From: a virus
Lineage: Duplodnaviria > Caudoviricetes
Direction: 5' to 3' (one strand)
Length of the DNA stretch: 64,000 bases
IMG/VR virus record: IMGVR_UViG_3300028048_000091
Coordinates: 1 to 64,000 of that record
How positions within the stretch are numbered: position 1 is the first letter of the stretch; every line of letters starts with the position of its first letter. Under the pieces are notes generated by a model, which saw nothing but the letters and a program-made list of their open reading frames with translations, was not told the DNA's origin and searched no databases. Position numbers and translations under genes: made by a program. Below are positions 2,072 to 58,957 of this stretch, piece by piece.

Positions 2072-3214
2072 ATGCGAAATATTCTATTTGTACAATTTGC
2101 CAACAGCATGTTTAAAAGGCATGGCTCATGTGATACCTATTGGGATGTTTTCTATAAGAAATGGGAAAATATCGGGTATTACATGGGTAAGAATACCTTT
2201 GAGATACCCAAATGGATTACTGAGATTGCGTATTTTTTGCCGGACGATAATAAAGAGGTATTTTGGTGCAAAAATCACATTTCTGAGGTAATAAATCACA
2301 TAAAAATCACGAAATACGACTTTGTTCTATTCTCATTGATGAATGCCAATCAATATTTCATACAGGATATTGTGAAGGCTTGCCCAAATCAGAAATTCCT
2401 AATTGGTGGATATAATGAGGATTTCATGTGGGAAATGCGTATACAATTCCCTAATATAAGAATATGTAACACTACAAAAGACACAGCAAGGGAACTTGGT
2501 GCAACTTATGAATTCGGAACTGATTATACTTTATTCAATGGTGAAAGGATTATACCAAGATTAACAATGTCCTATGGATGTCTTAACAACTGTAAATTCT
2601 GTATTGTACCTCATGGAAAGATTACATCAGTAAATGATAAGTACATTGAACAACAGATTAAATCATTTGAGCCGCTTGATTACAGATTAATCTATATTGA
2701 CGATAAAACATTTGGTCAAGCAGACAATTACAGAAAATTAAAGGAATTATCTGATTTAACTGGTAAAGATGATTTCAATGGGTTTATTGTTCAGACAACA
2801 TCCGGTATGTTAGTTAAGAAATCAGTGGATTTCAATGATATTGGTGTTAAAGTTGCTGAGATTGGTCTTGAGTCTTATAATGACGAAATACTAAGGAAAT
2901 ATAGGAAACCAAGTAGTGAAAAACTATTTGACAATGCAGTTGAAGCAGCAAGGGAAAGTGGTATAAAACTTATAGCAAATATTATAGTAGGTCTTCCTGA
3001 AGAAACAATTGATACATATCAAAAAACATATGATAGATTGATGTTTTTATTGTCAAAAGGACATCTAATTGGAGTAAACCCTGCTATATATACAAACTAT
3101 GACGATGATGCAAATTTGGGTGAAATAGACTTCAAAGAAGATGAAAAGACTGAATTACACAAGGAATGGTGGGATAAATTCAATAATGCTGCGGCTGAAA
3201 TTTTGTCCAATTAA
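2072..3214 (+). CDS. Radical SAM protein (probably B12-binding class)
   Basis: GCLNNCKFC CxxxCxxC motif, IGLES, IIVGLPEET. Confidence 0.85.
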   Translation: MRNILFVQFANSMFKRHGSCDTYWDVFYKKWENIGYYMGKNTFEIPKWITEIAYFLPDDNKEVFWCKNHISEVINHIKITKYDFVLFSLMNANQYFIQDIVKACPNQKFLIGGYNEDFMWEMRIQFPNIRICNTTKDTARELGATYEFGTDYTLFNGERIIPRLTMSYGCLNNCKFCIVPHGKITSVNDKYIEQQIKSFEPLDYRLIYIDDKTFGQADNYRKLKELSDLTGKDDFNGFIVQTTSGMLVKKSVDFNDIGVKVAEIGLESYNDEILRKYRKPSSEKLFDNAVEAARESGIKLIANIIVGLPEETIDTYQKTYDRLMFLLSKGHLIGVNPAIYTNYDDDANLGEIDFKEDEKTELHKEWWDKFNNAAAEILSN

Positions 3215-3370
3215 CAATTTTTAACAAAAAATATTTGGATATATGCAGAAAAAGTAGTATCTTTGCACGACGAAATGTAAAACATACCAATTCACTTGGT
3301 AAAACTACAATAATTATAATTTAGTAAATAAATAAATTTTTAAAATTTAATTTTTTTTTGTAAAAAGACT

Positions 3371-4438
3371 ATGAAGAAGTTTATTTTTAGTTTGGTGATG
3401 GCTTTCGTAGCCATTATGAGTGCAAACGCACAGATTGCGACTGAGAACAGTAATGCATTGGATAACATTGCAGCAGGTGTAACGGTTGGTGCAAGTACCC
3501 CTCTTGATTTCAACTCTGTATTCCCTCTCAACACCAATGTTGGTGTAAAGGTACAGAAGGATTTTACCCCTGTATTCGGTGCTCAGATTGAGGCATTGGC
3601 TTTCTTGAATGATAACCATTTTGCCGACATTAAGACATTGGTTAAGACAACCAATCTTGGTTTTAACGGAGTGGTTAACCTTTCAAATGCATTTTGTGGC
3701 TACAATGGTACACCACGTACATTTGAGGTAAGTGCTGTAGCCGGCCTTGGATGGCTTCGTGCTTGGGACATTAAGGACAATAGTTTGTCTGCAAAGACAG
3801 GCGTTGATTTGGCTCTTAATCTTGGCAAGAACAAGGCTCATTCGTTTGTATTGACCCCTGCTGTATATTGGAATTTGCATAAGATTGATGCAATTCAGTT
3901 TACAAAGCATGGAGCACAGCTTGCACTTAATCTGACTTACATGTATCACTTTAAGACAAGCAATGGTACACATCATTTCAAGACCTATGATGTAGGTGCA
4001 ATGATTAGTGAGATTGACCGTTTGAATGGCGCACTTGCAGAGTGTGAGAGCCGTGAGCCAAAGGTAGTTGAGAAGATTGTTGTTAAGGAGGTTCCTGTTA
4101 CGGCTGATGGTCAGAAGGTTGTCGTTGATGAGAAGGGCACACCTGTCACAAATGACACAGACCGTGATGCTTGGATTGTTCCATTTAATAACAACAGTGC
4201 ATATCTTAACGTTGAGGCACACTTCATCCTTAATCAGATTAGCCGTAATTCAGTTGTCGATATCGTAGCAACTGCATCTACCACCGGTACTGATGAGTAT
4301 AATCAGAAGCTTTCTGAGTGGCGTGCACAGTCTGTTGCAACATACCTCAAGGGTCGTGGCATCAAGGTTAATAGTGCTGTCGGTAAGGGTAAGAACCCTG
4401 AAAGCGGACGTGTTGCTATTGTAACAATGGCGAAGTAA
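3371..4438 (+). CDS. OmpA-family outer membrane protein
   Basis: Signal peptide ending ANA-Q, beta-barrel-like N-half, C-terminal OmpA-like motif YNQKLSEWRAQSV. Confidence 0.85.
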   Translation: MKKFIFSLVMAFVAIMSANAQIATENSNALDNIAAGVTVGASTPLDFNSVFPLNTNVGVKVQKDFTPVFGAQIEALAFLNDNHFADIKTLVKTTNLGFNGVVNLSNAFCGYNGTPRTFEVSAVAGLGWLRAWDIKDNSLSAKTGVDLALNLGKNKAHSFVLTPAVYWNLHKIDAIQFTKHGAQLALNLTYMYHFKTSNGTHHFKTYDVGAMISEIDRLNGALAECESREPKVVEKIVVKEVPVTADGQKVVVDEKGTPVTNDTDRDAWIVPFNNNSAYLNVEAHFILNQISRNSVVDIVATASTTGTDEYNQKLSEWRAQSVATYLKGRGIKVNSAVGKGKNPESGRVAIVTMAK

Positions 4439-6701: not shown

Positions 6702-8195
6702 ATGAGAGCAGTATATTTAAAGAATTTCAGAAAGGGGTTTGCAACCAACAGTAGTTCAACACATTCAATCATCTATCGTAATAAAGATGAAATGTTTAAG
6801 GATTTGAATATCTTTGAATTGAATTATTATGATAGGTTTGATAACACAATTGCGGCTTCAAGAGAGGCTAAAATTAAATACGTTGCAGCAAATATCTTTT
6901 GGAATAAGACGTTATTCGAGATAATGTGCCAGTATTATCCGGAAATGAAACAATATGAGGAACTTGCCAAAAAAGCAAGGGAAAATGATTTGTATGAGGA
7001 ATTTGGTATGTATACCAGGGGGGCACTTAGTTTCAGAAAAGGTACAGAACTTGAAGCAAGCATTGATTTCCTTAAAAATGTAATCGATGATGAAGACATT
7101 ATTATTGTCGGCGGTTCTGATGAAGCAGATTTTGTATATGCTACAACTGAAGGACATAAGGAGATAGCATTGCCGGATGACATTGGAATTGGTAGTCTTT
7201 CAAAAGGTATAGTAAAGAACGGTAATTATTGGATTGGGTACGGATGGGATGGAAAAATTCGTTTCAAGACCGAAAAAGGTGACTGTGTTCCATCATATCC
7301 TGAACTTGTTGACCTTCGTATTACTAACAAGTGCCAACATGGTTGTCCGTTCTGTTTCATGGATTCTTCAATGAAGGAGAAAGAGGCTGATTTCTTCAAA
7401 CTTAAAGCTATAATTAACCAATTATCGTCAAATGAGTATGACCGATATGACAGACGTGTTGAGTTCTCAGTTGGTGGCGGAAACATACTTCTTTATTCAC
7501 ATCTTGAAGAGTTGTTCAAGTACATGAAAGAACGTGGTCATATTATTAATACAACTATTAATGCAAAAGACTGCAAAGAGATTCTTTCAAATGAGAAATA
7601 TCTTAAATTATTTAAGGATTATGTCACCGCAATTGGCGTATCTGTAACTGATGAGAAAGATATTGATATTCTTGGTGATTTTAAGTTCTCATTCAATCGT
7701 GATGGCTATAAGCAGATTACAATTCATCTGATACCTGAACTTCTTGGCGTTGAGAAGACAATGGAACTTATACAGAAGATTGAAAAGCAATATGAGTATT
7801 TCAATTTCCTTTTCTTGGGTTATAAGACTAATGGACGAGGAAAGACACAAGAGTATAGGACATTCACTAATGATGAATTAACCAAGTTGTTCGGCGAAGA
7901 TTTATTGGTTAGTATTGATACCACGTTTGCCAATACATATAAGGATTGGCTTGAAAAGAATTTTGAAACTGACAAGACGATTACATTGAATGAAGGTGAA
8001 TATAGCATGTATATTGATGCTGTTGAAGGTTTTGCATACAAATCATCATATCAGTTAGACAAACCTTACGACATTAAGTACGGAGGCTGTGAAGAACATG
8101 GTAAAACATGGTTTACACCGATAGAGGCATTTGCCAATATTCGTAGGGATAACGGATTCAAGGTATATGGTGAAGAAGATACTGAAACTAATTAA
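6702..8195 (+). CDS. Radical SAM protein with N-terminal TNSSS-motif domain
   Basis: GFATNSSSTHS at the N-terminus; CQHGCPFC; GGG motif. Confidence 0.8.
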   Translation: MRAVYLKNFRKGFATNSSSTHSIIYRNKDEMFKDLNIFELNYYDRFDNTIAASREAKIKYVAANIFWNKTLFEIMCQYYPEMKQYEELAKKARENDLYEEFGMYTRGALSFRKGTELEASIDFLKNVIDDEDIIIVGGSDEADFVYATTEGHKEIALPDDIGIGSLSKGIVKNGNYWIGYGWDGKIRFKTEKGDCVPSYPELVDLRITNKCQHGCPFCFMDSSMKEKEADFFKLKAIINQLSSNEYDRYDRRVEFSVGGGNILLYSHLEELFKYMKERGHIINTTINAKDCKEILSNEKYLKLFKDYVTAIGVSVTDEKDIDILGDFKFSFNRDGYKQITIHLIPELLGVEKTMELIQKIEKQYEYFNFLFLGYKTNGRGKTQEYRTFTNDELTKLFGEDLLVSIDTTFANTYKDWLEKNFETDKTITLNEGEYSMYIDAVEGFAYKSSYQLDKPYDIKYGGCEEHGKTWFTPIEAFANIRRDNGFKVYGEEDTETN

Positions 8196-37954: not shown

Positions 37955-39214
37955 TTAAAACTTGAACAAACTTGTCTGTTCATTATTAACTTCTTGTTTC
38001 AACCTACCACTGCTTTTTAGTACCTCATTGCTGAGTCTGTCATCCACAGTTGGGTAGTCCACAAGCGTGAATTCGGATGTACTGCACCCTATTATTCTTA
38101 ATCCCTCATCAAGTATATTTAATGCTGCATTGTAGTCCCTTTCAATCACCTCACCACATTGAGGGCAAGCCCATTGTCTATCATTTAATGTGAGGCTTTT
38201 ATTGATGTAACCGCAATTATGGCAAGTCTTACTTGACGGATAAAACCTATCAACAAATACTATCTTTCGGTTATACCAATTTGCCTTATATTCAAGCATC
38301 CTACGAAACTCACCGAAGTTCATTTCACAAATACTCTCTGCAAGATTATGATTCTTAACCATTCCTTTCACGTTCAAGTCTTCCATACATATGACTTGGT
38401 TTTCGTCAATGAGTGAATTACTTACTGTGTGAAGATAGTATTGCTTCTTGTCGTTTATCTTTTTATATAACTTAGCAAGTTTAATCCTTGCCTTGTTTCT
38501 GTTATTGCTTCCTTTCTGTTTTTTCGACAACTGACGTTGTAACCTCTTAATCTTCTTTGTTTCAGACTTCTTGAAATGAAGATTGTTGAATACTTCTCCG
38601 TCACTTGTTATTACAAAGTCCTTTATTCCAAGGTCAATACCTACAACAGCATTGGTTTCTTTTACCTTGTGGGTCAAATCACCATCAACCAATATGGACA
38701 AGTAGTATTCTCCACACGGCAATCTTGTTAATGTTGCTTGTCTGATATTATCGTGATGCTTCTGTAGATACTGCGCATATTTCTCATTGCATCTGAATCT
38801 GACATTTCTTATGTTTGCAAGTGACAAATAATATGTTGTATAGTTGTTACGTTTAGAAATCGCTCCTAATTCAAACCTACAACTTTGTTTGTTGTCGTGC
38901 TTTGATTTGAATTTAGGAAATCCACTATGTTGCTCAAAGAAATTCTTATAAGCGGAAAGCATATCTTTCACGGCTTGTTTGAGAACCTTTGTGTTCTGTT
39001 CTCTGAGCCAAATGAAATTATCATCCTTCAATAGTTCGTGATGAACAAATTGCCCAAGCGTAGAAAGGTTTTCTGATTTACCGTCATTCTTATATGATTC
39101 TATTTTTCTGTTAAGGCATTGATTATAGACAACACGGTAGCATCCAAGCAACTTATTGAACATTGTTGCTTGTTCCTTGTTCGGATATAACCTTATCTTA
39201 ACTGCTCTTAACAT
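37955..39214 (-). CDS. tnpB: TnpB RNA-guided endonuclease
   Basis: KIRLYP HTH, GIDLG (RuvC I), MEDL (RuvC II), CHNCG/CPQCG Zn finger, RDYNAA (RuvC III). Confidence 0.95.
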   Translation of the reverse strand: MLRAVKIRLYPNKEQATMFNKLLGCYRVVYNQCLNRKIESYKNDGKSENLSTLGQFVHHELLKDDNFIWLREQNTKVLKQAVKDMLSAYKNFFEQHSGFPKFKSKHDNKQSCRFELGAISKRNNYTTYYLSLANIRNVRFRCNEKYAQYLQKHHDNIRQATLTRLPCGEYYLSILVDGDLTHKVKETNAVVGIDLGIKDFVITSDGEVFNNLHFKKSETKKIKRLQRQLSKKQKGSNNRNKARIKLAKLYKKINDKKQYYLHTVSNSLIDENQVICMEDLNVKGMVKNHNLAESICEMNFGEFRRMLEYKANWYNRKIVFVDRFYPSSKTCHNCGYINKSLTLNDRQWACPQCGEVIERDYNAALNILDEGLRIIGCSTSEFTLVDYPTVDDRLSNEVLKSSGRLKQEVNNEQTSLFKF

Positions 39215-39247
39215 CTTATTTGAATTTAGTAATTATCTATTATTTGA

Positions 39248-50012: not shown

Positions 50013-50615
50013 ATGAGAATAAGAGAATTATTAAGCACGTCAAGTGGTGGCATTGACCCAACGACTGGACGCGGAATGATAGGAAAATATGAGGTAGTTG
50101 ACCTTGGTTTACCAAGTGGGTTGTTGTGGGCAACGTGTAACGTTGGAGCGACGAGGGAAGCAATATATGGAGACTTTTATATGTATGGTAAAGGCGCACA
50201 AACGTATTATTATGAAGACAGTGAGTATGAAGGTATGGAAAACCCACTAGCATCAAGTGTTGATACTGCAACACAAGTAATGGGTAGCGGATGGAGGATG
50301 CCAACACAAACTGAACTAAATGAGTTGATTAATAATACTGCATTCAGTCTTTATACCATTGATGGCAGATATGGCGGAAAGTTTACAAGTAAGACAAATC
50401 CAAATGCATATGTGTTTTTCCCTTTCGCTGGCAACTACATCGATGGTAATTACCAAAGTTACAATAGGCACTGCAACGTTTGGAGTTCTACGCCTAAAGA
50501 TAATAGCAACTCCTACGCTTTCTACTGTGGTGATGGCTACCCATCATCTCCGTATAAGGGCGTTAGTGACAGCCCTCGTAACTACGGGTTCTCGGTGCGT
50601 GGCGTACATACGTAA
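50013..50615 (+). CDS. Fib_succ_major/DUF1566-like CLec-fold protein, likely DGR target
   Basis: VDLGLPSGLLWATCNVGA, WRMPT..EL.EL, FFPFAG, WSST, GFSVRGV. Confidence 0.75.
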   Translation: MRIRELLSTSSGGIDPTTGRGMIGKYEVVDLGLPSGLLWATCNVGATREAIYGDFYMYGKGAQTYYYEDSEYEGMENPLASSVDTATQVMGSGWRMPTQTELNELINNTAFSLYTIDGRYGGKFTSKTNPNAYVFFPFAGNYIDGNYQSYNRHCNVWSSTPKDNSNSYAFYCGDGYPSSPYKGVSDSPRNYGFSVRGVHT

Positions 50616-50802
50616 GTTTGATAATTTACTAGATTCTTCAATTTTATAAACAATATGTATATCCGACAGCACAGTTATGCCAGAGCGTTCATGAAACTAT
50701 AATATATAAAGAAAATATTATCAATAGTTTTTTCATTTTAAAGTTTAGTATATATAGTCAAAGAGGCAGATGTCAATGGTTTAGCATCTACCTCTTTTTA
50801 TT

Positions 50803-51606
50803 TTAATTAATTTCTTGCCAATTGGCATTATATATCTTTCCTGTTTGGTTATCCTTAATATATGTAATTGGCACAGGTTTTAGCGAATTAACAACGATTG
50901 CAGACCCTCCTTTCCAATATTGTGCAACAAATGGATAATGTTTAAATGCATTTACCAATGTGCCATATCTCTCAATATCATTCTCAAAATCGTATACTTG
51001 ATTAGGATTTACAAGACAATAATATGTATATTGGCTACCGTTTGATTGGTCATTACCGGGTTCTTTACTTCCCCAAAAGTAGATACCTATATCTGAATTA
51101 TTGGAATATGTATTAGGTTGTCCTTTTTTAACAACCCCATCTGTTATCTTATATGAACTGTCATGCTTCAATACGACTTTATCCCCCGACATTTCAAGTT
51201 GACTCAAAAACATTTGATGTTTCTGTTCTTGCTCTTCTGTCTTTTTCTTTCCAAGGAATACTTCTCCGTAATAGGTATCTCTATATTGGTCATATATCTG
51301 TAGGTATTGTTTCTGATATGCAGGTATATTCAGTTCATTACCTGTACCATCAGGTTTTGTATTATATCCACTTGCTCTGTATCTGAATGTACTGAAATCA
51401 TCTGTTTGTGGAAAATTAGGATTAACCATAAGATAGGCATCACCGCCAGTTCCAATATAAGAACCGTTTTTGATAATACCTATATTAATCCAATTTGTCA
51501 TATCTGTTTCAGATAGACTTTCGTTAAGAAACCTAACATCAGGGTTAAGTTTCTCCATCCATTCGTTAACGTTATCTAACCAATCCTTATTGTTATTTAC
51601 TCCCAT
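50803..51606 (-). CDS. Hypothetical protein with shared N-terminal leader; possible ADP-ribosyltransferase-like C-terminus
   Basis: NNNKDWLDNVNEWMEKLNP leader; LKHDSS...GIYF spacing only weakly ART-like. Confidence 0.5.
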   Translation of the reverse strand: MGVNNNKDWLDNVNEWMEKLNPDVRFLNESLSETDMTNWINIGIIKNGSYIGTGGDAYLMVNPNFPQTDDFSTFRYRASGYNTKPDGTGNELNIPAYQKQYLQIYDQYRDTYYGEVFLGKKKTEEQEQKHQMFLSQLEMSGDKVVLKHDSSYKITDGVVKKGQPNTYSNNSDIGIYFWGSKEPGNDQSNGSQYTYYCLVNPNQVYDFENDIERYGTLVNAFKHYPFVAQYWKGGSAIVVNSLKPVPITYIKDNQTGKIYNANWQEIN

Positions 51607-52511
51607 ATCATAACTTCTCCTTTTCGTCTCATTCTTTCCGATAACTGACAAGGCATCGGATTAACATAGCATTCACCGAATGAAATATCATATGTATATC
51701 GTTTTCCAATACTATCGATGTCATTAAGATGTTCTTGATAATACTTTTCAAAGCCATCGTTTGTTACAGGAATATTGTTTTGATGGCAATATGTTTTATA
51801 TTTGCCAAGTAGTTTATTGCGAATTTCCTTATTTACTTCATCCTTTGATTTAAATGAGGTGAAATATTCTTGTTTGGGGTCATTCTTCCAATATTTATTA
51901 CTTTCTCGGCTATTAACCTTATTACCATTTTTATCAACCCATATTGGTGCTTCATTAGGTGCTTTAATAAGAACGCTGTCTTGGTCATACTTAGCACAAA
52001 GTGATAAACCAAACTGTTTTAATTCATCAAAATCTTTTGTTTGGCCATCTGTTGTATAATTAAATACGATAAATGACGGTTCATAATCGTCCTCGACACC
52101 GTTTGTACCTCTATAACCACCGTATGTAGGTAAGAATGAATATCCACTTTTCTGCAAGTCACTGATAAGTGCCTTTGTTTGTGCATCATTCCTTTCTTGT
52201 GGCATATCACTCCTATTAGCACTAATGTTAATCATACCATTTGTGCCATGTTTCTGAAGTACTCTATCAAGAGTGACTTCATCAATCCTAACAGGCTTAT
52301 TATGATTGCTTATAATACCATAGAAACGGTTCATTACATCTTCATTTACAGTCTTCGCTTTTTCATGAAGTTGTCTGAATGCTTCCTTTCGGTTTCTTTG
52401 TTCTTCTTCGATACTGAGTTTTACTTCATTAATGAAATGGACTTCTGGATTAAGTTTCTCCATCCATTCGTTAACGTTACCTAACCAATCCTTATTGTTA
52501 TTCTGTTGCAT
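51597..52511 (-). CDS. SAM lyase (T3 SAMase/DUF3293)-like protein with N-terminal leader
   Basis: ISANRS..ERN..L...GGYR..EPSFIV..LCAKYDQDSVL resembles my recollection of T3 gp0.3 (VSAFRS..N..GCYRE..EE..LACNEWEQDCVL). Confidence 0.55.
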   Translation of the reverse strand: MQQNNNKDWLGNVNEWMEKLNPEVHFINEVKLSIEEEQRNRKEAFRQLHEKAKTVNEDVMNRFYGIISNHNKPVRIDEVTLDRVLQKHGTNGMINISANRSDMPQERNDAQTKALISDLQKSGYSFLPTYGGYRGTNGVEDDYEPSFIVFNYTTDGQTKDFDELKQFGLSLCAKYDQDSVLIKAPNEAPIWVDKNGNKVNSRESNKYWKNDPKQEYFTSFKSKDEVNKEIRNKLLGKYKTYCHQNNIPVTNDGFEKYYQEHLNDIDSIGKRYTYDISFGECYVNPMPCQLSERMRRKGEVMIWE

Positions 52512-52536
52512 GATTTAAGAATAATATATCTTAAGG

Positions 52537-52713
52537 CAACTATACAGGGTTTGACCCCATACGTTTCTTGCTTCGCAGGGTTCGTAGCCTCTTCCCTCCA
52601 CAAGCTCTACACCCACTTGCCAATGGGCTATCCATAAATGGATTTTACTTAAATTGCGGTATTAAGACCCATCAAGGGGTCACGCTACATATAAATATCA
52701 CTTGGGGTCAAAA
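52537..52713 (-). ncRNA. Structured RNA resembling a TnpB omega-RNA scaffold / non-autonomous IS derivative
   Basis: GC-rich, multi-hairpin; gcttgtgga...gaagcaagaa motif also present at the 3' end of tnpB 37955-39214. Confidence 0.5.
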
Positions 52714-52765
52714 AGTATATAATTACCTATCTTAATATAAATATTGGTGGCCAACAAGTATAATG

Positions 52766-53332
52766 TTATTGGCCATTGATTATCCAAGTGTATCTTTTTT
52801 TGAGTGATTTGAGCCAATCAATATCACACTGATATTCTCTCAAATTAGGATATTGTTCTTTACAATACTCTACAGACCATAAAATAGAAGATATTCTTTT
52901 CTCATCATCTTCACTCCAATCAGAAGGCTTATTTTCTAATTTGAATGTAGAAATAGCATCGGTAAGGCCTTGTCTGTATGCATCTACCATACAATTAACA
53001 GGTTTCCCAAAGCTCTCATTATCTTTTATTGGGTTGTTACGATACTTAGAAACCATTTCTTCTATTACATCGTCATCAGCTTTCTGTTCACCTTGTTTTT
53101 CAAGCCAAGGCAACCACCTTTCCCTAAAATCAGAAAATTGTTTTGGGGTCATTTGGTTGCTATTTATTTCCAAATAATTGATTATTTCTTTTCTTACATT
53201 CTCATTATTACTCTCTTGTAGTTCCGGGGCAACCTCATCAAGTACAGACTTGAATGTATAGCCGCCCTTTATTTCTTTGGCATTCTTCAATTTCTGAACA
53301 AGGCCTTTGTATTTCTGTTCGTAATTTACCAT
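52766..53332 (-). CDS. Modular hypothetical protein
   Basis: PELQES, WLEKQGEQK, WSEDDE, WLKSLK modules. Confidence 0.6.
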   Translation of the reverse strand: MVNYEQKYKGLVQKLKNAKEIKGGYTFKSVLDEVAPELQESNNENVRKEIINYLEINSNQMTPKQFSDFRERWLPWLEKQGEQKADDDVIEEMVSKYRNNPIKDNESFGKPVNCMVDAYRQGLTDAISTFKLENKPSDWSEDDEKRISSILWSVEYCKEQYPNLREYQCDIDWLKSLKKRYTWIINGQ

Positions 53333-53341
53333 AGTTTTATT

Positions 53342-54532
53342 TTAACTAATGTTGAACTCATTTTTAAGACTGTCTACAAGGTCAAGTTTTTCCCAAGGAT
53401 AATTGATTTGATTTTCTACCAATTCCATTTCCTCACGTGTCTTACCATAATGGCCATTTAATGCCGCATTTTTATATCTTTCAACGCCATTACCAAATCT
53501 CTTTATGATATTATGTGGTTCCAATTTGACATTTTCCTTAACCCATCTAACAAGTGCTGATTCAAGTTCCTTATTTTTATCAAGTTCAATACTGATTGAG
53601 GTTGGTTCTGCAACGCCAATTGAATATGATACATCAACAGTTGCAACATTTGCGATACCGGCGGCAACAATATTTTTAGCAATATATCTACACATCATAT
53701 TTGCTGAATAGTCAACTTTTGATGCATCCTTACCATGAAGTCCGCCGGCTGAAATTCTAAATGATGAACCAAATTGGTCACAAGCAAGTTTTCTATTACA
53801 CATTCCACAATCAGAGACACTACCACCCGTATTCCATACACCGGCCGGATTGACATCAATTACAAAATTCTTGTCTGCAATGAATTTATTATATATATCA
53901 TCACTTAGACCGATTTTGTTATATTGTATAGCATTCGTAATATAACCTCGAAGTATTGAAATATCACATTGGTGCATTGAAGATACTAAAATTGAATTTA
54001 TCTTAACAGGGGTATTACCTTCATATTCAATAACGACTTGCGTTTTAGCATCCGGACCAATCTCTAATGTGCTTTTCATAATAAAGTCACAAATATGTTT
54101 GGTTATATAACACCCCAGTGGCATAAACGTTTCAGTTTCATTTGTTGCACCGGCGGTCATCCAGCCTTGGTCACCTGCTGTGGTTATTTCATCTGATACA
54201 TCAACTGCTTTATGAATCTCTGGGGATTGTTTACCAATCAAGTTAATTATTTTAATGTTTTCGGGATATAATCCGTGATTTTTAGGGTATACTATCTCCT
54301 TAAATACGTTTCTTACAATGCTGTCATAATCTACGACACTTTTAGAATAAATCTCGCCGCCAAGAACTACGATGTTATCTTTCATCATAGTTTCAATACC
54401 ACAACGAGAATTAGAATCTCCGCTAACAAAAGCATCAACCAATGCTCCTGCAATTACATCGCACACTTTGTCGGGATGACCCGGTGTTACGGCTTCTACT
54501 GCCAATACACGTTTGTTTTTGTTTTCTACCAT
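53342..54532 (-). CDS. metK: S-adenosylmethionine synthetase
   Basis: EAVTPGHPDKVCD, QSPEI, AGDQG, PDAKTQV, GGLHGKDASKVD. Confidence 0.95.
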   Translation of the reverse strand: MVENKNKRVLAVEAVTPGHPDKVCDVIAGALVDAFVSGDSNSRCGIETMMKDNIVVLGGEIYSKSVVDYDSIVRNVFKEIVYPKNHGLYPENIKIINLIGKQSPEIHKAVDVSDEITTAGDQGWMTAGATNETETFMPLGCYITKHICDFIMKSTLEIGPDAKTQVVIEYEGNTPVKINSILVSSMHQCDISILRGYITNAIQYNKIGLSDDIYNKFIADKNFVIDVNPAGVWNTGGSVSDCGMCNRKLACDQFGSSFRISAGGLHGKDASKVDYSANMMCRYIAKNIVAAGIANVATVDVSYSIGVAEPTSISIELDKNKELESALVRWVKENVKLEPHNIIKRFGNGVERYKNAALNGHYGKTREEMELVENQINYPWEKLDLVDSLKNEFNIS

Positions 54533-54591
54533 TTAATTTAAAGTTTTAAAAAATTATTGTTTAAAATTAAATGTAGTGAACCTATTAATTA

Positions 54592-54640
54592 GATTTTAGC
54601 CGTTTTTAAAGAGGTGGCAAGCACTACAAATCCCCTCTAT
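54592..54640 (-). promoter_or_regulatory. SAM-II (SAM_alpha-like) riboswitch in the metK leader
   Basis: AGAGG-GGAUUUG-UAGU-GCUUGC-CA-CCUCU-UUAAAAAC-GGCUAAAA: P1 AGAGG/CCUCU plus conserved GAUUUG, GCUUGC, UAAA, GCUAAA; begins just after the promoter at 54645. Confidence 0.75.
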
Positions 54641-54698
54641 CGTTTGCAAATATACTATATTTCTACAATATAATAAAGTAACTTTATATTAAAAATTG

Positions 54699-55256
54699 TT
54701 AATATTCAATCGCCTTTATCTTAGTAATTTCGTCAATCTGATACAACGAACAATCTTTAAGACTGTCATAACGTTTAAGTTCATTATATGCCTCATCTTT
54801 AGTTCGATACCGACAAGTATTGCCATCTATATATGTGGCAAAACTAAAGCCCCCAAGACTATCACACTGATACTCAACATCACCATTTTCAAGTTCACGT
54901 CCAACTAAATAATTGGCCTGCGTAGTTGTTCTACATCCGAAATTATTAAACTCTTTTTCAACAGTATCATTATTTATTGATAGAACAACAGGATGCAATG
55001 CATCAATCTTAACCCAATTTAGGCAACTTGGTGATAAATTGAGCCTTAATGTGTTATTATCAAACGTGATTCCATCATTTGTCTTGTAATTCTTATTAGC
55101 CTCAGTTCTTAGGAACGTGCCATTTCCATCCCCAAATTCAATCCAAATGGGGACGTTATGCATTATGTGATTCTTATTAATGAAATCAACCAAATCACCA
55201 ACGCTGACATATTCCTTGTCAAGAGGTTTAAAGTTTGGTTTATCTATAAACATCAC
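54699..55256 (-). CDS. Hypothetical protein
   Basis: 185 aa ORF. Confidence 0.55.
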   Translation of the reverse strand: MMFIDKPNFKPLDKEYVSVGDLVDFINKNHIMHNVPIWIEFGDGNGTFLRTEANKNYKTNDGITFDNNTLRLNLSPSCLNWVKIDALHPVVLSINNDTVEKEFNNFGCRTTTQANYLVGRELENGDVEYQCDSLGGFSFATYIDGNTCRYRTKDEAYNELKRYDSLKDCSLYQIDEITKIKAIEY

Positions 55257-56293
55257 AAATTCTCAATTTTTTCTTTTAAGAAATCCTTTTCTACAATCTC
55301 CTTACCAAGTATCTGAATAACCTTATCCAATGTAAGGTCATCTTCAGGAGTCACCCAAGAATCTATGTAGTATAGCTTCTTACTGCCACATATCATTCCA
55401 AACAAGATTGGGTCTCTTCTACGTGCAGCCTCAATCTTCTTTTCCTTGTTGGTCATATGATATACTTCACCATCCGGAGAATAAGACAAAATACAATAAT
55501 TGTCAAATACTTCCAACTTGTCTATTTCTAATTTCTTCTTAATGATATCAAGTGGAATTGTTCTTGTGTAGTTCTTAATGTAATCCAAGCCTAATGCTTT
55601 TGGACTATTGAATGCAAGTTTAACTAACGTTTCCTCACTGATAGCCTTATACAACCCTTTACCATACAGTATTGACTCGTATTTATTAATGATAAGTTGT
55701 TCGAATAGCTTTTCCTTTAAGGCTACCTGACCGCTTGCTTCTGTATATGCAATGCAATCAACGTAATCCTTTATTCTATCACGATACTTCTCAGCCTCTT
55801 CCTTACTAAGAGCCTTGACATCAGAAAAGAATTTGATTACATCAAAATTGATTTCCTTTTCCTTCTTATTATTAGACTTCTTGGATTTGAATATATTACG
55901 GAGTTTAGAAAATAATGATTTCTTTTTATTATACGGAATATTATCATCAATATTGTTTGGACCAACAGAATTTGAGGCAAATACCGAAGGCGTACCAACC
56001 CAAGTGTCATTAAGGTTCTGACGCATGCTTTCAGATACCTTGACATTGAACTCAGTAATAGACAAATCCTTATCAGAAAGGAAATAATCCTTTAACTCAT
56101 TATAAGATAGTACAGGGGTTGTAGAATTGTCACCTTCTACAAAACTATTGTTTAAATTTCCAACCGTTTCTAACTTACTGTTATTATCTAATTTTTTTGC
56201 TGCCTTATATTTAGGCAAACTTGTATCAACCTCGACTCTTCCTAAGATTGATACACGTTTTTTATCAGATGTTAATAAAGGTAATCTTGCCAT
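55253..56293 (-). CDS. Conserved hypothetical phage protein
   Basis: IKNYTRTIP..FDNYCIL..DPILFG..LYYIDSW. Confidence 0.65.
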   Translation of the reverse strand: MARLPLLTSDKKRVSILGRVEVDTSLPKYKAAKKLDNNSKLETVGNLNNSFVEGDNSTTPVLSYNELKDYFLSDKDLSITEFNVKVSESMRQNLNDTWVGTPSVFASNSVGPNNIDDNIPYNKKKSLFSKLRNIFKSKKSNNKKEKEINFDVIKFFSDVKALSKEEAEKYRDRIKDYVDCIAYTEASGQVALKEKLFEQLIINKYESILYGKGLYKAISEETLVKLAFNSPKALGLDYIKNYTRTIPLDIIKKKLEIDKLEVFDNYCILSYSPDGEVYHMTNKEKKIEAARRRDPILFGMICGSKKLYYIDSWVTPEDDLTLDKVIQILGKEIVEKDFLKEKIENL

Positions 56294-57583: not shown

Positions 57584-58957
57584 GTGAACTACCCCCACCT
57601 AAAGGAGGGGGCTTCCCCATTCAACGAAGCGGCTTGCATTAAGGTTTCCCTTAATGTAGAGGTCACTTCTCCAGGGGCGTAAATTCCCGCAGTTCCTGCG
57701 GTATTATATTCATTTTCTAATACAACACTATAAAAATAGTCTCTAAGGTTTAAGGCAGCATTGTAATCACGGTCAATTACGCAACCACAAGTGGGGCATA
57801 CCCATTCCCGGTCAGATAATTGCAGTAAATCGTTCTTACTACCACATTCATGACAGGTCTTACTACTCGGAAACCATTTATCCACGTACATAACACAACT
57901 ATCACGCTCTATGCACTTGTATTCAAGAAAACTACGAAACTCACCAAAACCTAAATCCATAACGGATTTACCAAGGTGCAAAGTACGAGACATATCTTGC
58001 AGGTTTATATCCTCAAGAACAATTACATCATACTTATCCACGTAGTAACGAGATAGTTTATGGCAGTAGTCTAAACGGCAATTAGCAACATGACGGCTTA
58101 ACTTGGATAAACGCTTCCTCGACTTGTAACGATTGGAAGAACCCTTAACCTTACGTGATACCATACGTTGCAGCCTTTTAAGACGTTTCTCGTTCCTCCG
58201 GTAATTCCTAATGTACTTGGCTTTCGTATCATCGGGATTACTATCGGAATCAACGGAGAAATCCGTCAAAGACATGTCAATGCCTACGATTTTCAATTCA
58301 TTGTATTTTTTATGTTTATGCGTATAGCCAACATTTTCATCAGGGATTTCTACGGCAATGGATGCGTAGTATTGCCCATCCCTTGTCTGTTCAATCGTGC
58401 AAGAAGTGATGTTACCCACTAACTCACGATGTAAGACTATATCCACAAACCCCAACTTAGGAAGTTTAAGTTTCCCATTTTCCAACCGGATAGTACCATT
58501 TTGGTTATTCGTTGTATAGGAAAGTTTGCATTTGCTTTTTTTATGCTTTTTGGGGAAGCGTACTTTTTTTCCTTTGCGTTTTCCTTTTTTGCTATCGAAA
58601 TAGTTTTTAAATGCAGTTTTCAGATGTTGCTTTGCGTTGGCGAGTGCAAGTGAGTCTACTTCGTTAAGGAATGTGTATGTATTTTTAAAGTGCGTTACTT
58701 CTTTTAGTTTTGGTTTTAGTCCGTTGTCAAGTTGTGTTTTATAGTCGTTAAGTAGTGAATTGTATATGAGACGTGCACATCCCACCGTCTTATTTATTAA
58801 GATGGCTTGCTGTGTTGTTGGCAGTAGTTTATACTTGTACGCTCGTCTCATTAGTATTGATTATTTATTATAAGTATAGTATACTTATTGTTATAAGTAA
58901 ATAGTAGTTTTGCAATTCATCCCCCACCTGAAGGAAGGGGACTTCTTGCCAAAAAAT
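57584..58957 (-). mobile_element. IS200/IS605-family (IS1341-like, tnpB-only) element
   Basis: Subterminal hairpins at both ends; right end TCAC; inserted 3' of TTAAT; removal restores an ORF. Confidence 0.85.
57589..58851 (-). CDS. tnpB: TnpB RNA-guided endonuclease
   Basis: AYKYKL.P, GIDMS, LEDI, CHECG/CPTCG, DRDYNAA. Confidence 0.95.
   Translation of the reverse strand: MRRAYKYKLLPTTQQAILINKTVGCARLIYNSLLNDYKTQLDNGLKPKLKEVTHFKNTYTFLNEVDSLALANAKQHLKTAFKNYFDSKKGKRKGKKVRFPKKHKKSKCKLSYTTNNQNGTIRLENGKLKLPKLGFVDIVLHRELVGNITSCTIEQTRDGQYYASIAVEIPDENVGYTHKHKKYNELKIVGIDMSLTDFSVDSDSNPDDTKAKYIRNYRRNEKRLKRLQRMVSRKVKGSSNRYKSRKRLSKLSRHVANCRLDYCHKLSRYYVDKYDVIVLEDINLQDMSRTLHLGKSVMDLGFGEFRSFLEYKCIERDSCVMYVDKWFPSSKTCHECGSKNDLLQLSDREWVCPTCGCVIDRDYNAALNLRDYFYSVVLENEYNTAGTAGIYAPGEVTSTLRETLMQAASLNGEAPSFRWG

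Follow-up and report, generated by a model that had tools for sequence, protein, structure and literature searches.

A riboswitch-led metK paired with a SAM-lyase-family gene in a probable Bacteroidetes jumbo phage: a candidate gene set for the control of S-adenosylmethionine

The first 64,000 nucleotides (nt) of the viral record IMGVR_UViG_3300028048_000091, the whole stretch analysed here and called the window, carry a gene for S-adenosylmethionine (SAM) synthetase (metK; 53342-54532, minus strand), which is preceded by a SAM-II-class riboswitch leader and followed, with a gap of 831 nt, by a gene for a SAM-lyase-family protein of 304 amino acids (aa; 51597-52511, minus strand). The two genes and the leader are intact, and their order is conserved in several related phages, which points to a deliberate control of the host SAM pool. 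We propose, with about even confidence, that they belong to a SAM-control gene set with two opposing arms in a T4-like jumbo phage of Bacteroidetes with a genome of about 400 kb. In the first arm, the phage MetK would be transcribed from a host-type promoter and the leader would act as an off-switch, raising MetK output at low SAM and lowering it at high SAM. In the second arm, a T3-type SAM lyase would cleave SAM to methylthioadenosine and homoserine lactone, and the loss of SAM would starve SAM-dependent host defences, namely type I/III restriction and bacteriophage exclusion (BREX). The lyase and a neighbouring protein with an ADP-ribosyltransferase (ART)-like fold would be made with a shared propeptide ending in (L/I)xE and trimmed by a T4-type prohead protease, the mature proteins would travel in the capsid and act as the DNA enters, and the riboswitch-gated MetK would then supply SAM to three DNA methyltransferases and two radical-SAM enzymes of the phage. 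The genes for these five enzymes, which a preceding sequence-only reading of the window had already counted, were located by PF02086 (1274-1972 and 59653-60246), by PF01555 (17284-17970) and, for the radical-SAM enzymes, at 2567-3040 and 7317-7652. The distance of about 0.8 kb between metK and the lyase-like gene given by that reading agrees with the 831 nt found here.

The product of metK (396 aa) matched all three MetK Pfam domains (E-values of 6e-35, 5e-26 and 6e-18), E. coli MetK structures with 216 bits, and TIGR01034 with 296 bits, which is slightly under the equivalog cut-off of 309. It keeps the equivalents of the E. coli residues H14, D16, E42, D118, K165, D238, R244, K245, K265, K269 and D271, and in an alignment of 16 sequences from phages and cellular relatives these catalytic residues are invariant. 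Judged from its sequence, the window MetK is intact and there is no reason to suspect inactivity. The unusual strings GWMTAG and DCGMCNRK that it had pointed out were both found in the protein. In the same alignment, the string MCNRKLAC is typical of the wider phage MetK clade, down to about 62% identity, and GWMT(A/G)G is limited to the window MetK and its three nearest relatives.

Upstream of metK, the SAM-II (long-loop) riboswitch aptamer, pseudoknot included, was placed at 54572-54643 (minus strand) from its match to RF01726 and from its helices. In a permissive scan of 2.9 kb, RF01726 was the top Rfam match of the metK leader (54586-54643, minus strand; 35.1 bits, E-value of 2.9e-4). The gathering score of this family is 44 bits, and no Rfam match was obtained when the whole window was scanned at the gathering threshold. 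In all nine phage loci, that of the window included, the leader directly upstream of metK had RF01726 as its best match, always at the same place, and although the window copy lies below the family cut-off, two relatives pass it (L009 with 47.3 and L020 with 46.4 bits), the remaining ones scoring 39.7 (L019), 35.9 (L006), 31.9 (L021), 30.3 (L023), 26.9 (L024) and 26.3 bits (L007). The aptamer helix P1 of the window is AGAGG/CCUCU, and its blocks GAUUUG, UUGC and GCUAAA recur in the homologous leaders. Among the nine loci P1 occurs in three compensated forms, AGAGG/CCUCU, AAGG/CCUU and AGGG/CCCU. The pseudoknot helix keeps one register, from the UG of GAUUUG to a segment 2-25 nt past GCUAAA, and occurs in six complementary forms, UGUAGUG/CACUACA in the window and UGGGAC/GUCCCA, UGUAGA/UCUACA, UGUGCGGC/GCCGCAUA, UGUAGCGC/GUGCUACG and UGUGGUG/UGCCACG elsewhere, so that both P1 and the pseudoknot helix covary. 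When the loop strand was anchored and the sequence downstream of it was shuffled, sequence by sequence, the shuffled sequence matched the observed pseudoknot helix in 0.14% to 12% of trials per sequence (p of 0.0014-0.12). These sequence comparisons support the assignment of the metK leader as a real SAM-II-class riboswitch. It shares with the long-loop family RF01726, which was described from Bacteroidetes and from marine metagenomes (PMC2864571), the core blocks, P1, the H-type pseudoknot and the place directly upstream of metK, and differs from it in that it lies in a phage genome and in that the 3' strand of the pseudoknot is found at a variable distance. The spermidine-sensing SAM riboswitch variants, considered for comparison, are variants of SAM-I and not of SAM-II and were set aside as inapplicable.

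Just upstream of the riboswitch, the Bacteroidetes-type -7 promoter box TATATTTG was found as a motif match at 54647-54654 (minus strand), and a TAnnTTTG box lies 12-22 nt ahead of P1 in eight of the nine homologous leaders. A single copy of TAnnTTTG is not significant, the motif occurring 114 times in the window and 98.5 ± 10.9 times in shuffles. Over the whole 106.7-kb record (G000), the motif was observed 36 times at 10-70 nt upstream of genes as against 7.7 expected, and from this approximately fivefold enrichment the phage seems to make wide use of host-type Bacteroidetes promoters. Sigma-70-type promoters and intrinsic terminators in the region 50500-55400 were at chance level. With RF01726 as the best match, two relatives above the cut-off and the TATATTTG box in place, the SAM-II leader and the host-type promoter that had been read from the letters were both recovered. 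TAnnTTTG was also seen upstream of 34 of the 157 predicted genes of G000.

The 304-aa protein matched PF23780 (S-AdoMet_lyase) with 35.1 bits over residues 96-196, above the cut-off of 28, and a separate six-frame search of the record against the same family gave 36.3 bits. Its motifs are S97-A-N-R-S101, G132-Y133-R134, E144-P-S146 and Q177-D-S-V-L. A profile built from 28 sequences of the lyase family found the T3 SAM lyase (7ock_L) as the only meaningful solved relative (E-value of 0.005), and a search of solved structures with the single sequence gave no relevant match. The AlphaFold2 (AF2) model, with a predicted local distance difference test score (pLDDT) of 81, shows a beta-alpha-beta-beta-alpha-beta arrangement in residues 93-192. 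When this model was compared with Foldseek, the T3 SAM lyase was the top match (E-value of 7e-4) and Svi3-3 was also found; in VIA-align the T3 SAM lyase reached Z-scores of 9.7 and 9.5 and Svi3-3 of 6.0-6.2, while SAM-AMP lyases scored 4.3-4.6 and unrelated folds up to 5.5. The best superposition on the T3 enzyme (Z of 9.7) aligned 124 residues with a root-mean-square deviation of 4.0. A T3-SAMase-like core, as claimed by the sequence-only reading, is thus found by the family match, the profile, Foldseek and VIA-align alike, and the comparison with T3 SAMase and Svi3-3 that it had suggested matched both.

The catalytic core was delimited at residues of about 90-200 (51912-52244, minus strand), with the predicted PII-like fold, and the active site was placed from motifs and spacing. 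The active-site residues of Svi3-3 are G56, Y58, E69, S71, Q104, E105 and S106 (PMC7877911); the equivalents of G56-x-Y58, E69-x-S71 and Q104-E105-S106 in the window protein are G131-G-Y133, E144-P-S146 and Q177-D-S179. In the T3 enzyme the layout is G55-C-Y57 ... E68 ... Q94-D, and the spacing from Tyr to Glu is 11 residues in the window protein, in Svi3-3 and in T3 (Y57 to E68). Most of the 107 lyase homologues retain YGGY, [YF]EPSF and Q[DNE]S, the Glu being lost in a minority of short copies that are probably decayed. By sequence and predicted structure, the 304-aa protein is very probably a SAM lyase. It shares with the T3 SAM lyase (gp0.3; PDB 7OCK, 8BB1), its best structural and profile match, the PII-like, ferredoxin-like alpha-beta sandwich fold, the motifs S-A-x-R-S, G-x-Y-R and Q-D-x-V-L, and the origin from a phage, the T3 enzyme having an anti-defence role. 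It differs in size (304 against 152 aa). Twice as large as known SAM lyases, it begins with a helical part of 90 residues, whose leader is propeptide-like, and has about 75 further helical residues inserted ahead of the last strand. The C-terminal strand is conserved and still aligns with the T3 C-terminus. The setting differs as well, as the T3 enzyme is made as the first early gene of a small coliphage, whereas the window lyase stands beside a phage metK in a jumbo Bacteroidetes phage and is suspected to be packaged. With Svi3-3 (PDB 6ZM9, 6ZNB) it shares the catalytic layout, at a weaker fold match, 8-16% identity and without the extensions in Svi3-3. For the homotrimer with active sites at the subunit interfaces that is typical of these lyases, a prediction with three copies of the protein scored 0.00 and counts neither way, and PADLOC and NCBIfam returned nothing useful for the lyase and its neighbours. 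The sequences TATTTAT / ATATTTAT, considered as a phage promoter upstream of the lyase, were discarded because they are not enriched upstream of genes in the record (4 against 2.8 expected). A weak match of the lyase core to DUF3293 (E-value of 0.011) was noted, and a DUF3293 protein is encoded at 2734-3438 of locus L021 beside a methyltransferase upstream of metK; a distant relationship of DUF3293 to the SAM-lyase fold is possible.

A lyase of this fold might act on a SAM derivative such as SAM-AMP rather than on free SAM, in which case it would be an anti-CRISPR (clustered regularly interspaced short palindromic repeats) protein without any conflict with MetK. SAM-AMP is the signal of a type III-B CRISPR/CorA system described in Bacteroides fragilis, and the likely host phylum uses this kind of signalling. 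The SAM-AMP lyases, that is the C. botulinum CorA-associated enzyme and the phage candidate AcrIIIB4, belong to the same superfamily with the same fold and the same catalytic Glu and Gln, and their structures were among the fold matches of the window protein in Foldseek and VIA-align. AcrIIIB4 also has an added N-terminal domain, and a phage SAM-AMP lyase with such an extra domain and without activity on SAM has been characterized (PMC12255297). The model of the window protein is, however, much nearer to the T3 SAM lyase and to Svi3-3 than to the SAM-AMP lyases by the Z-scores given above. It also keeps the G-x-Y tyrosine, which in Svi3-3 stacks on the sulfonium of SAM (PMC7877911), although the choice of substrate is not settled by sequence alone. 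We consider a SAM-AMP substrate improbable.

The lyase and the gene that follows it have a common N-terminal leader of 26-29 residues. In the lyase it comprises 29 residues (52425-52511, minus strand), was recognized by near-identity with the start of the neighbour and ends in I-N-E. The neighbour, a protein of 267 aa (50803-51606, minus strand, with its ATG at 51606), overlaps the lyase stop codon, directly follows the lyase in close relatives, and has a leader ending in L-N-E in front of an ART-like C-terminal fold. Residues 5-29 of the lyase are nearly identical to the start of this protein, and no other open reading frame (ORF) of the record has a leader of this type. A search with residues 1-40 found P0107 as the sole match, a search that is limited by its word filter. 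The leaders of 21 homologues of the neighbour are diverse, while their terminal Glu is invariant and has L, I or V two residues before it. Of the 107 lyase-family members, 101 have [LI]xE in their first 35 aa; with shuffled N-termini the count is 54.7 ± 4.6, and in interior windows used as controls it is 6. In the AF2 model of the 267-aa protein (pLDDT of 85), the candidate cleavage site lies after one helix in a disordered linker (residues 24-31). All top 50 VIA-align rows of this model were ART-fold or ART-like proteins, at Z-scores of no more than 6.0 and with Foldseek E-values of at least 0.4; the matches of its C-terminal half include the diphtheria toxin C domain, MbcT, exotoxin A and poly(ADP-ribose) polymerases. 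H148-x-S150, Y195 and Y205 are invariant and D206 is nearly so in the 21 homologues, which makes them candidates for the H-x-S, Tyr and acidic catalytic positions of ARTs of the H-Y-E/D class; no Pfam match was found for the protein. It was rejected as a lyase homologue, having no homology to the lyase profile (probability below 1%). The ART-like domain was also seen at the end of proteins of 460-1280 aa.

Phage T4 packages Alt, an ADP-ribosyltransferase, and the anti-restriction protein IPI* by means of N-terminal targeting peptides, which the gp21 protease cuts at (L/I)xE. The window proteins resemble these internal proteins in being effectors that are unrelated apart from a short leader with (L/I)xE at its end, one of the two being ART-like as is Alt, and in that relatives of the phage have a T4-type capsid protein and protease. 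The close relative G002 encodes the T4-type major capsid protein Gp23 (PF07068, 199 bits), and a Peptidase_S77/gp21-family protease (PF03420) is encoded 1.8 kb from a lyase homologue of 46% identity in locus L056. They differ in that the window leader bears no resemblance in sequence to the targeting peptide of T4. By analogy with T4, packaging of the lyase in the capsid, which the sequence-only reading had raised as a possibility, is plausible and has indirect support, given the shared leader, the invariant Glu, the enrichment of [LI]xE, the disordered linker and the Gp23 and Peptidase_S77 of relatives. Gp23 itself was not found in the record of the window, which is 27% complete.

When loci were collected in which metK is followed within 3 kb by a PF23780 gene, seven were obtained including the window, with MetK proteins of 68-99% identity. 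The distance is 0.83 kb in the window and 2.9 kb, with four other genes between, in the L003/L005 contig; three genes lie between metK and lyase in the P0109 contig and one each in L021 and L024, the lyase domain of L024 being part of a protein of 515 aa, and the two genes are adjacent in the P0111 contig and in L009/L010. The genes in between differ among the linked loci, and relatives have genes for DNA methyltransferases and radical-SAM enzymes flanking the pair. The linkage in related phages for which the sequence-only reading had asked exists and fades with distance. Two further observations concern single loci. Tandem pairs of PF23780 paralogues occur in L057 (8001-9580) and L058 (7058-8948) with no metK within 8 kb, for which mixed trimers or a split of tasks are conceivable. 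The proteins of 277 aa in L011 and of 255 aa in L023, which are encoded directly downstream of metK and were compared with the lyase profile, have no homology to it (probability below 1%).

Beyond the distance of 3 kb, the lyase of the relatives G001 and G002 is 86% identical to that of the window, whereas the MetK encoded 6.3 kb upstream of it is only 39% identical to the window MetK. This MetK is 68% identical to Prevotella MetK and has the ordinary motifs. A comparison of L007 (G001) 1501-2900 with the window DNA at 53305-54710 showed 85% identity over 119 nt for the promoter and the 5' region of the riboswitch and 84% over 94 nt for the last 55 nt of metK together with the following sequence, the gene body between them being unrelated. 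These conserved flanks around an unrelated body indicate that the coding sequence was swapped within a conserved riboswitch slot; a slot that outlives such a swap would mean that SAM-responsive control is itself under selection in these phages. The swap also bears on a different role for the lyase-like protein, which might mainly bind and inhibit the host MetK, the phage MetK being an insensitive replacement with correspondingly divergent surface motifs. The T3 SAM lyase, to which this protein is structurally closest, inhibits E. coli MetK by forming heteropolymers with it (PMC8406200; structures 7ock and 8bb1), and the window MetK clade has the unusual strings GWMTAG and MCNRKLAC. G001 and G002, however, combine their closely similar lyase with a MetK of ordinary motifs, so that a specially resistant synthetase is not required, and the clear conservation of the catalytic motifs in the lyase argues for catalysis. 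Inhibition of MetK as the main role is very unlikely in our judgement.

Several points weigh against the proposal of a SAM-control gene set. Neither a clear terminator nor a sequestration of the start site was found between the aptamer and the ATG, the aptamer with its pseudoknot ending 39 nt before the ATG. In Prevotella dentasini and P. corporis, which have the two nearest cellular relatives of the replaced MetK, the sequence ahead of metK gave no RF01726 match, so that the term host-type leader is valid only at the level of the phylum. A functional need for the divergent motifs of the window MetK is disfavoured, as G001 and G002 hold the Prevotella-like body with the riboswitch and the 3' end of the gene retained. 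We know of no member of the 300-aa lyase subfamily with a known biochemical activity. The prohead protease PF03420 was not found in G000-G003, records that are 9-60% complete, in a search in which control genomes gave no match either; the contig of G002 begins inside the Gp23 gene, so that an adjacent protease gene would be cut off. A lyase and a MetK active at the same time would form an ATP-wasting futile cycle. Finally, the linkage is confined to one phage clade: no lyase lies near metK in the loci L011, L012, L022 and L023, and within 5-8 kb of the distant lyase genes of L056, L057 and L058 there is no metK, so that shared ancestry could explain much of the gene order.

The last of these points also favour another explanation, in which no coupled circuit exists. 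The riboswitch-led metK would be an auxiliary metabolic gene of the ordinary kind that regulates itself and feeds the methyltransferases and radical-SAM enzymes of the phage, and the lyase would be a separate anti-defence gene, the two being neighbours by descent in a loose island of SAM-related genes. A hairpin with a run of T directly after metK in relatives suggests separate transcripts, and the spacer between metK and lyase is a hotspot for unrelated insertions, ranging from 0.08 to 6.3 kb, both of which fit with independent neighbours. Against this explanation, the gene order outlasts a divergence of MetK to about 68%, the turnover of the genes in between and the swap of the metK body, and with five or more enzymes of its own that depend on SAM, a phage that breaks SAM down must reconcile both activities. 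Independence of the two genes is possible and we rate it as somewhat unlikely.

Under the proposal of two opposing arms, the best-supported reading, which gives one phage a sink (the lyase), a source (MetK) and a sensor (the riboswitch) for SAM, the futile cycle could be resolved by a separation in time, with a lyase that is injected or made late and a SAM-gated MetK that is made early; it could equally be resolved by another substrate of the lyase, such as SAM-AMP, or by an action of the lyase on the host MetK in analogy to T3 SAMase. A further reading is a two-stage circuit, in which the injected lyase and the ART effector would collapse the SAM pool, the drop in SAM would open the riboswitch, and MetK would restore SAM for modification of the phage DNA. 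We infer this order of events and the coupling of the two arms, and regard the complete circuit as unlikely. If the two arms are coupled, the phage would sense, drain and refill a central metabolite of its host, and, if true, injection of the lyase would be a possible case of a metabolic anti-defence enzyme delivered with the DNA. Phages are known to use SAM lyases against restriction and BREX and to carry metK as an auxiliary gene. In a literature search of incomplete coverage, SAM lyases, SAM-AMP lyases and viral auxiliary metK genes were found, while neither a conserved pairing of metK and lyase nor a SAM riboswitch governing a phage metK was reported. The parts are of known kinds, and the conserved combination of metK, lyase and riboswitch appears to be undescribed, as the sequence-only reading had supposed for the pairing.

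The record from which the window was taken is 106.7 kb long. At the completeness of 27% that CheckV assigned to it, the whole genome would measure about 400 kb, and the contigs of 335-400 kb that encode homologues of the window proteins likewise indicate a jumbo phage of this size. The G+C content is about 33%. The host of the phage is probably a member of the Bacteroidetes of Prevotella-like type, as judged from the enrichment of TAnnTTTG, from the source labels of homologues (Porphyromonadaceae, Paludibacteraceae and Bacteroidales) and from the Prevotella-like MetK of the two close relatives G001 and G002.

Between metK and the lyase gene lie an ORF and a non-coding spacer. The ORF (52766-53332, minus strand; 188 aa) overlaps the metK stop codon by 11 nt and probably shares a transcript with metK; no match was found in Pfam, PHROGs, NCBIfam or PADLOC. 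Its slot varies among relatives, being taken by 0 to 4 unrelated genes. The spacer (52512-52765, minus strand; 254 nt) precedes the lyase gene, is richer in G+C and is structured in comparison with shuffled sequences, the sense strand folding with -74.4 kcal/mol (z of -3.2, none of 200 shuffles being as good) and the antisense strand with a z of -1.1. It gave no Rfam match and no tRNA and had no copy in the loci of relatives examined, and a search of 50,697 phage records for similar DNA was negative. The spacer and the 3' ends of two of the three tnpB genes of the record have two 10-mers in common, in the same order, GCTTGTGGAG ... GAAGCAAGAA, and local alignments of the spacer with the tnpB 3' ends were weak only. 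The spacer may be an orphan remnant resembling a TnpB omega-RNA, or a leader RNA.

The three TnpB genes (Cas12f1-like_TNB) lie within 107 kb of phage DNA, two of them in the window (37955-39232 and 57589-58851, both on the minus strand) and one further along the record (G000 72323-73585, minus strand), and TnpB genes near metK or lyase were also seen in L011 and L056. A lone gene on the plus strand amid genes of the minus strand was noted at 50013-50615, with sub-threshold matches to Lcl_C and Fib_succ_major.

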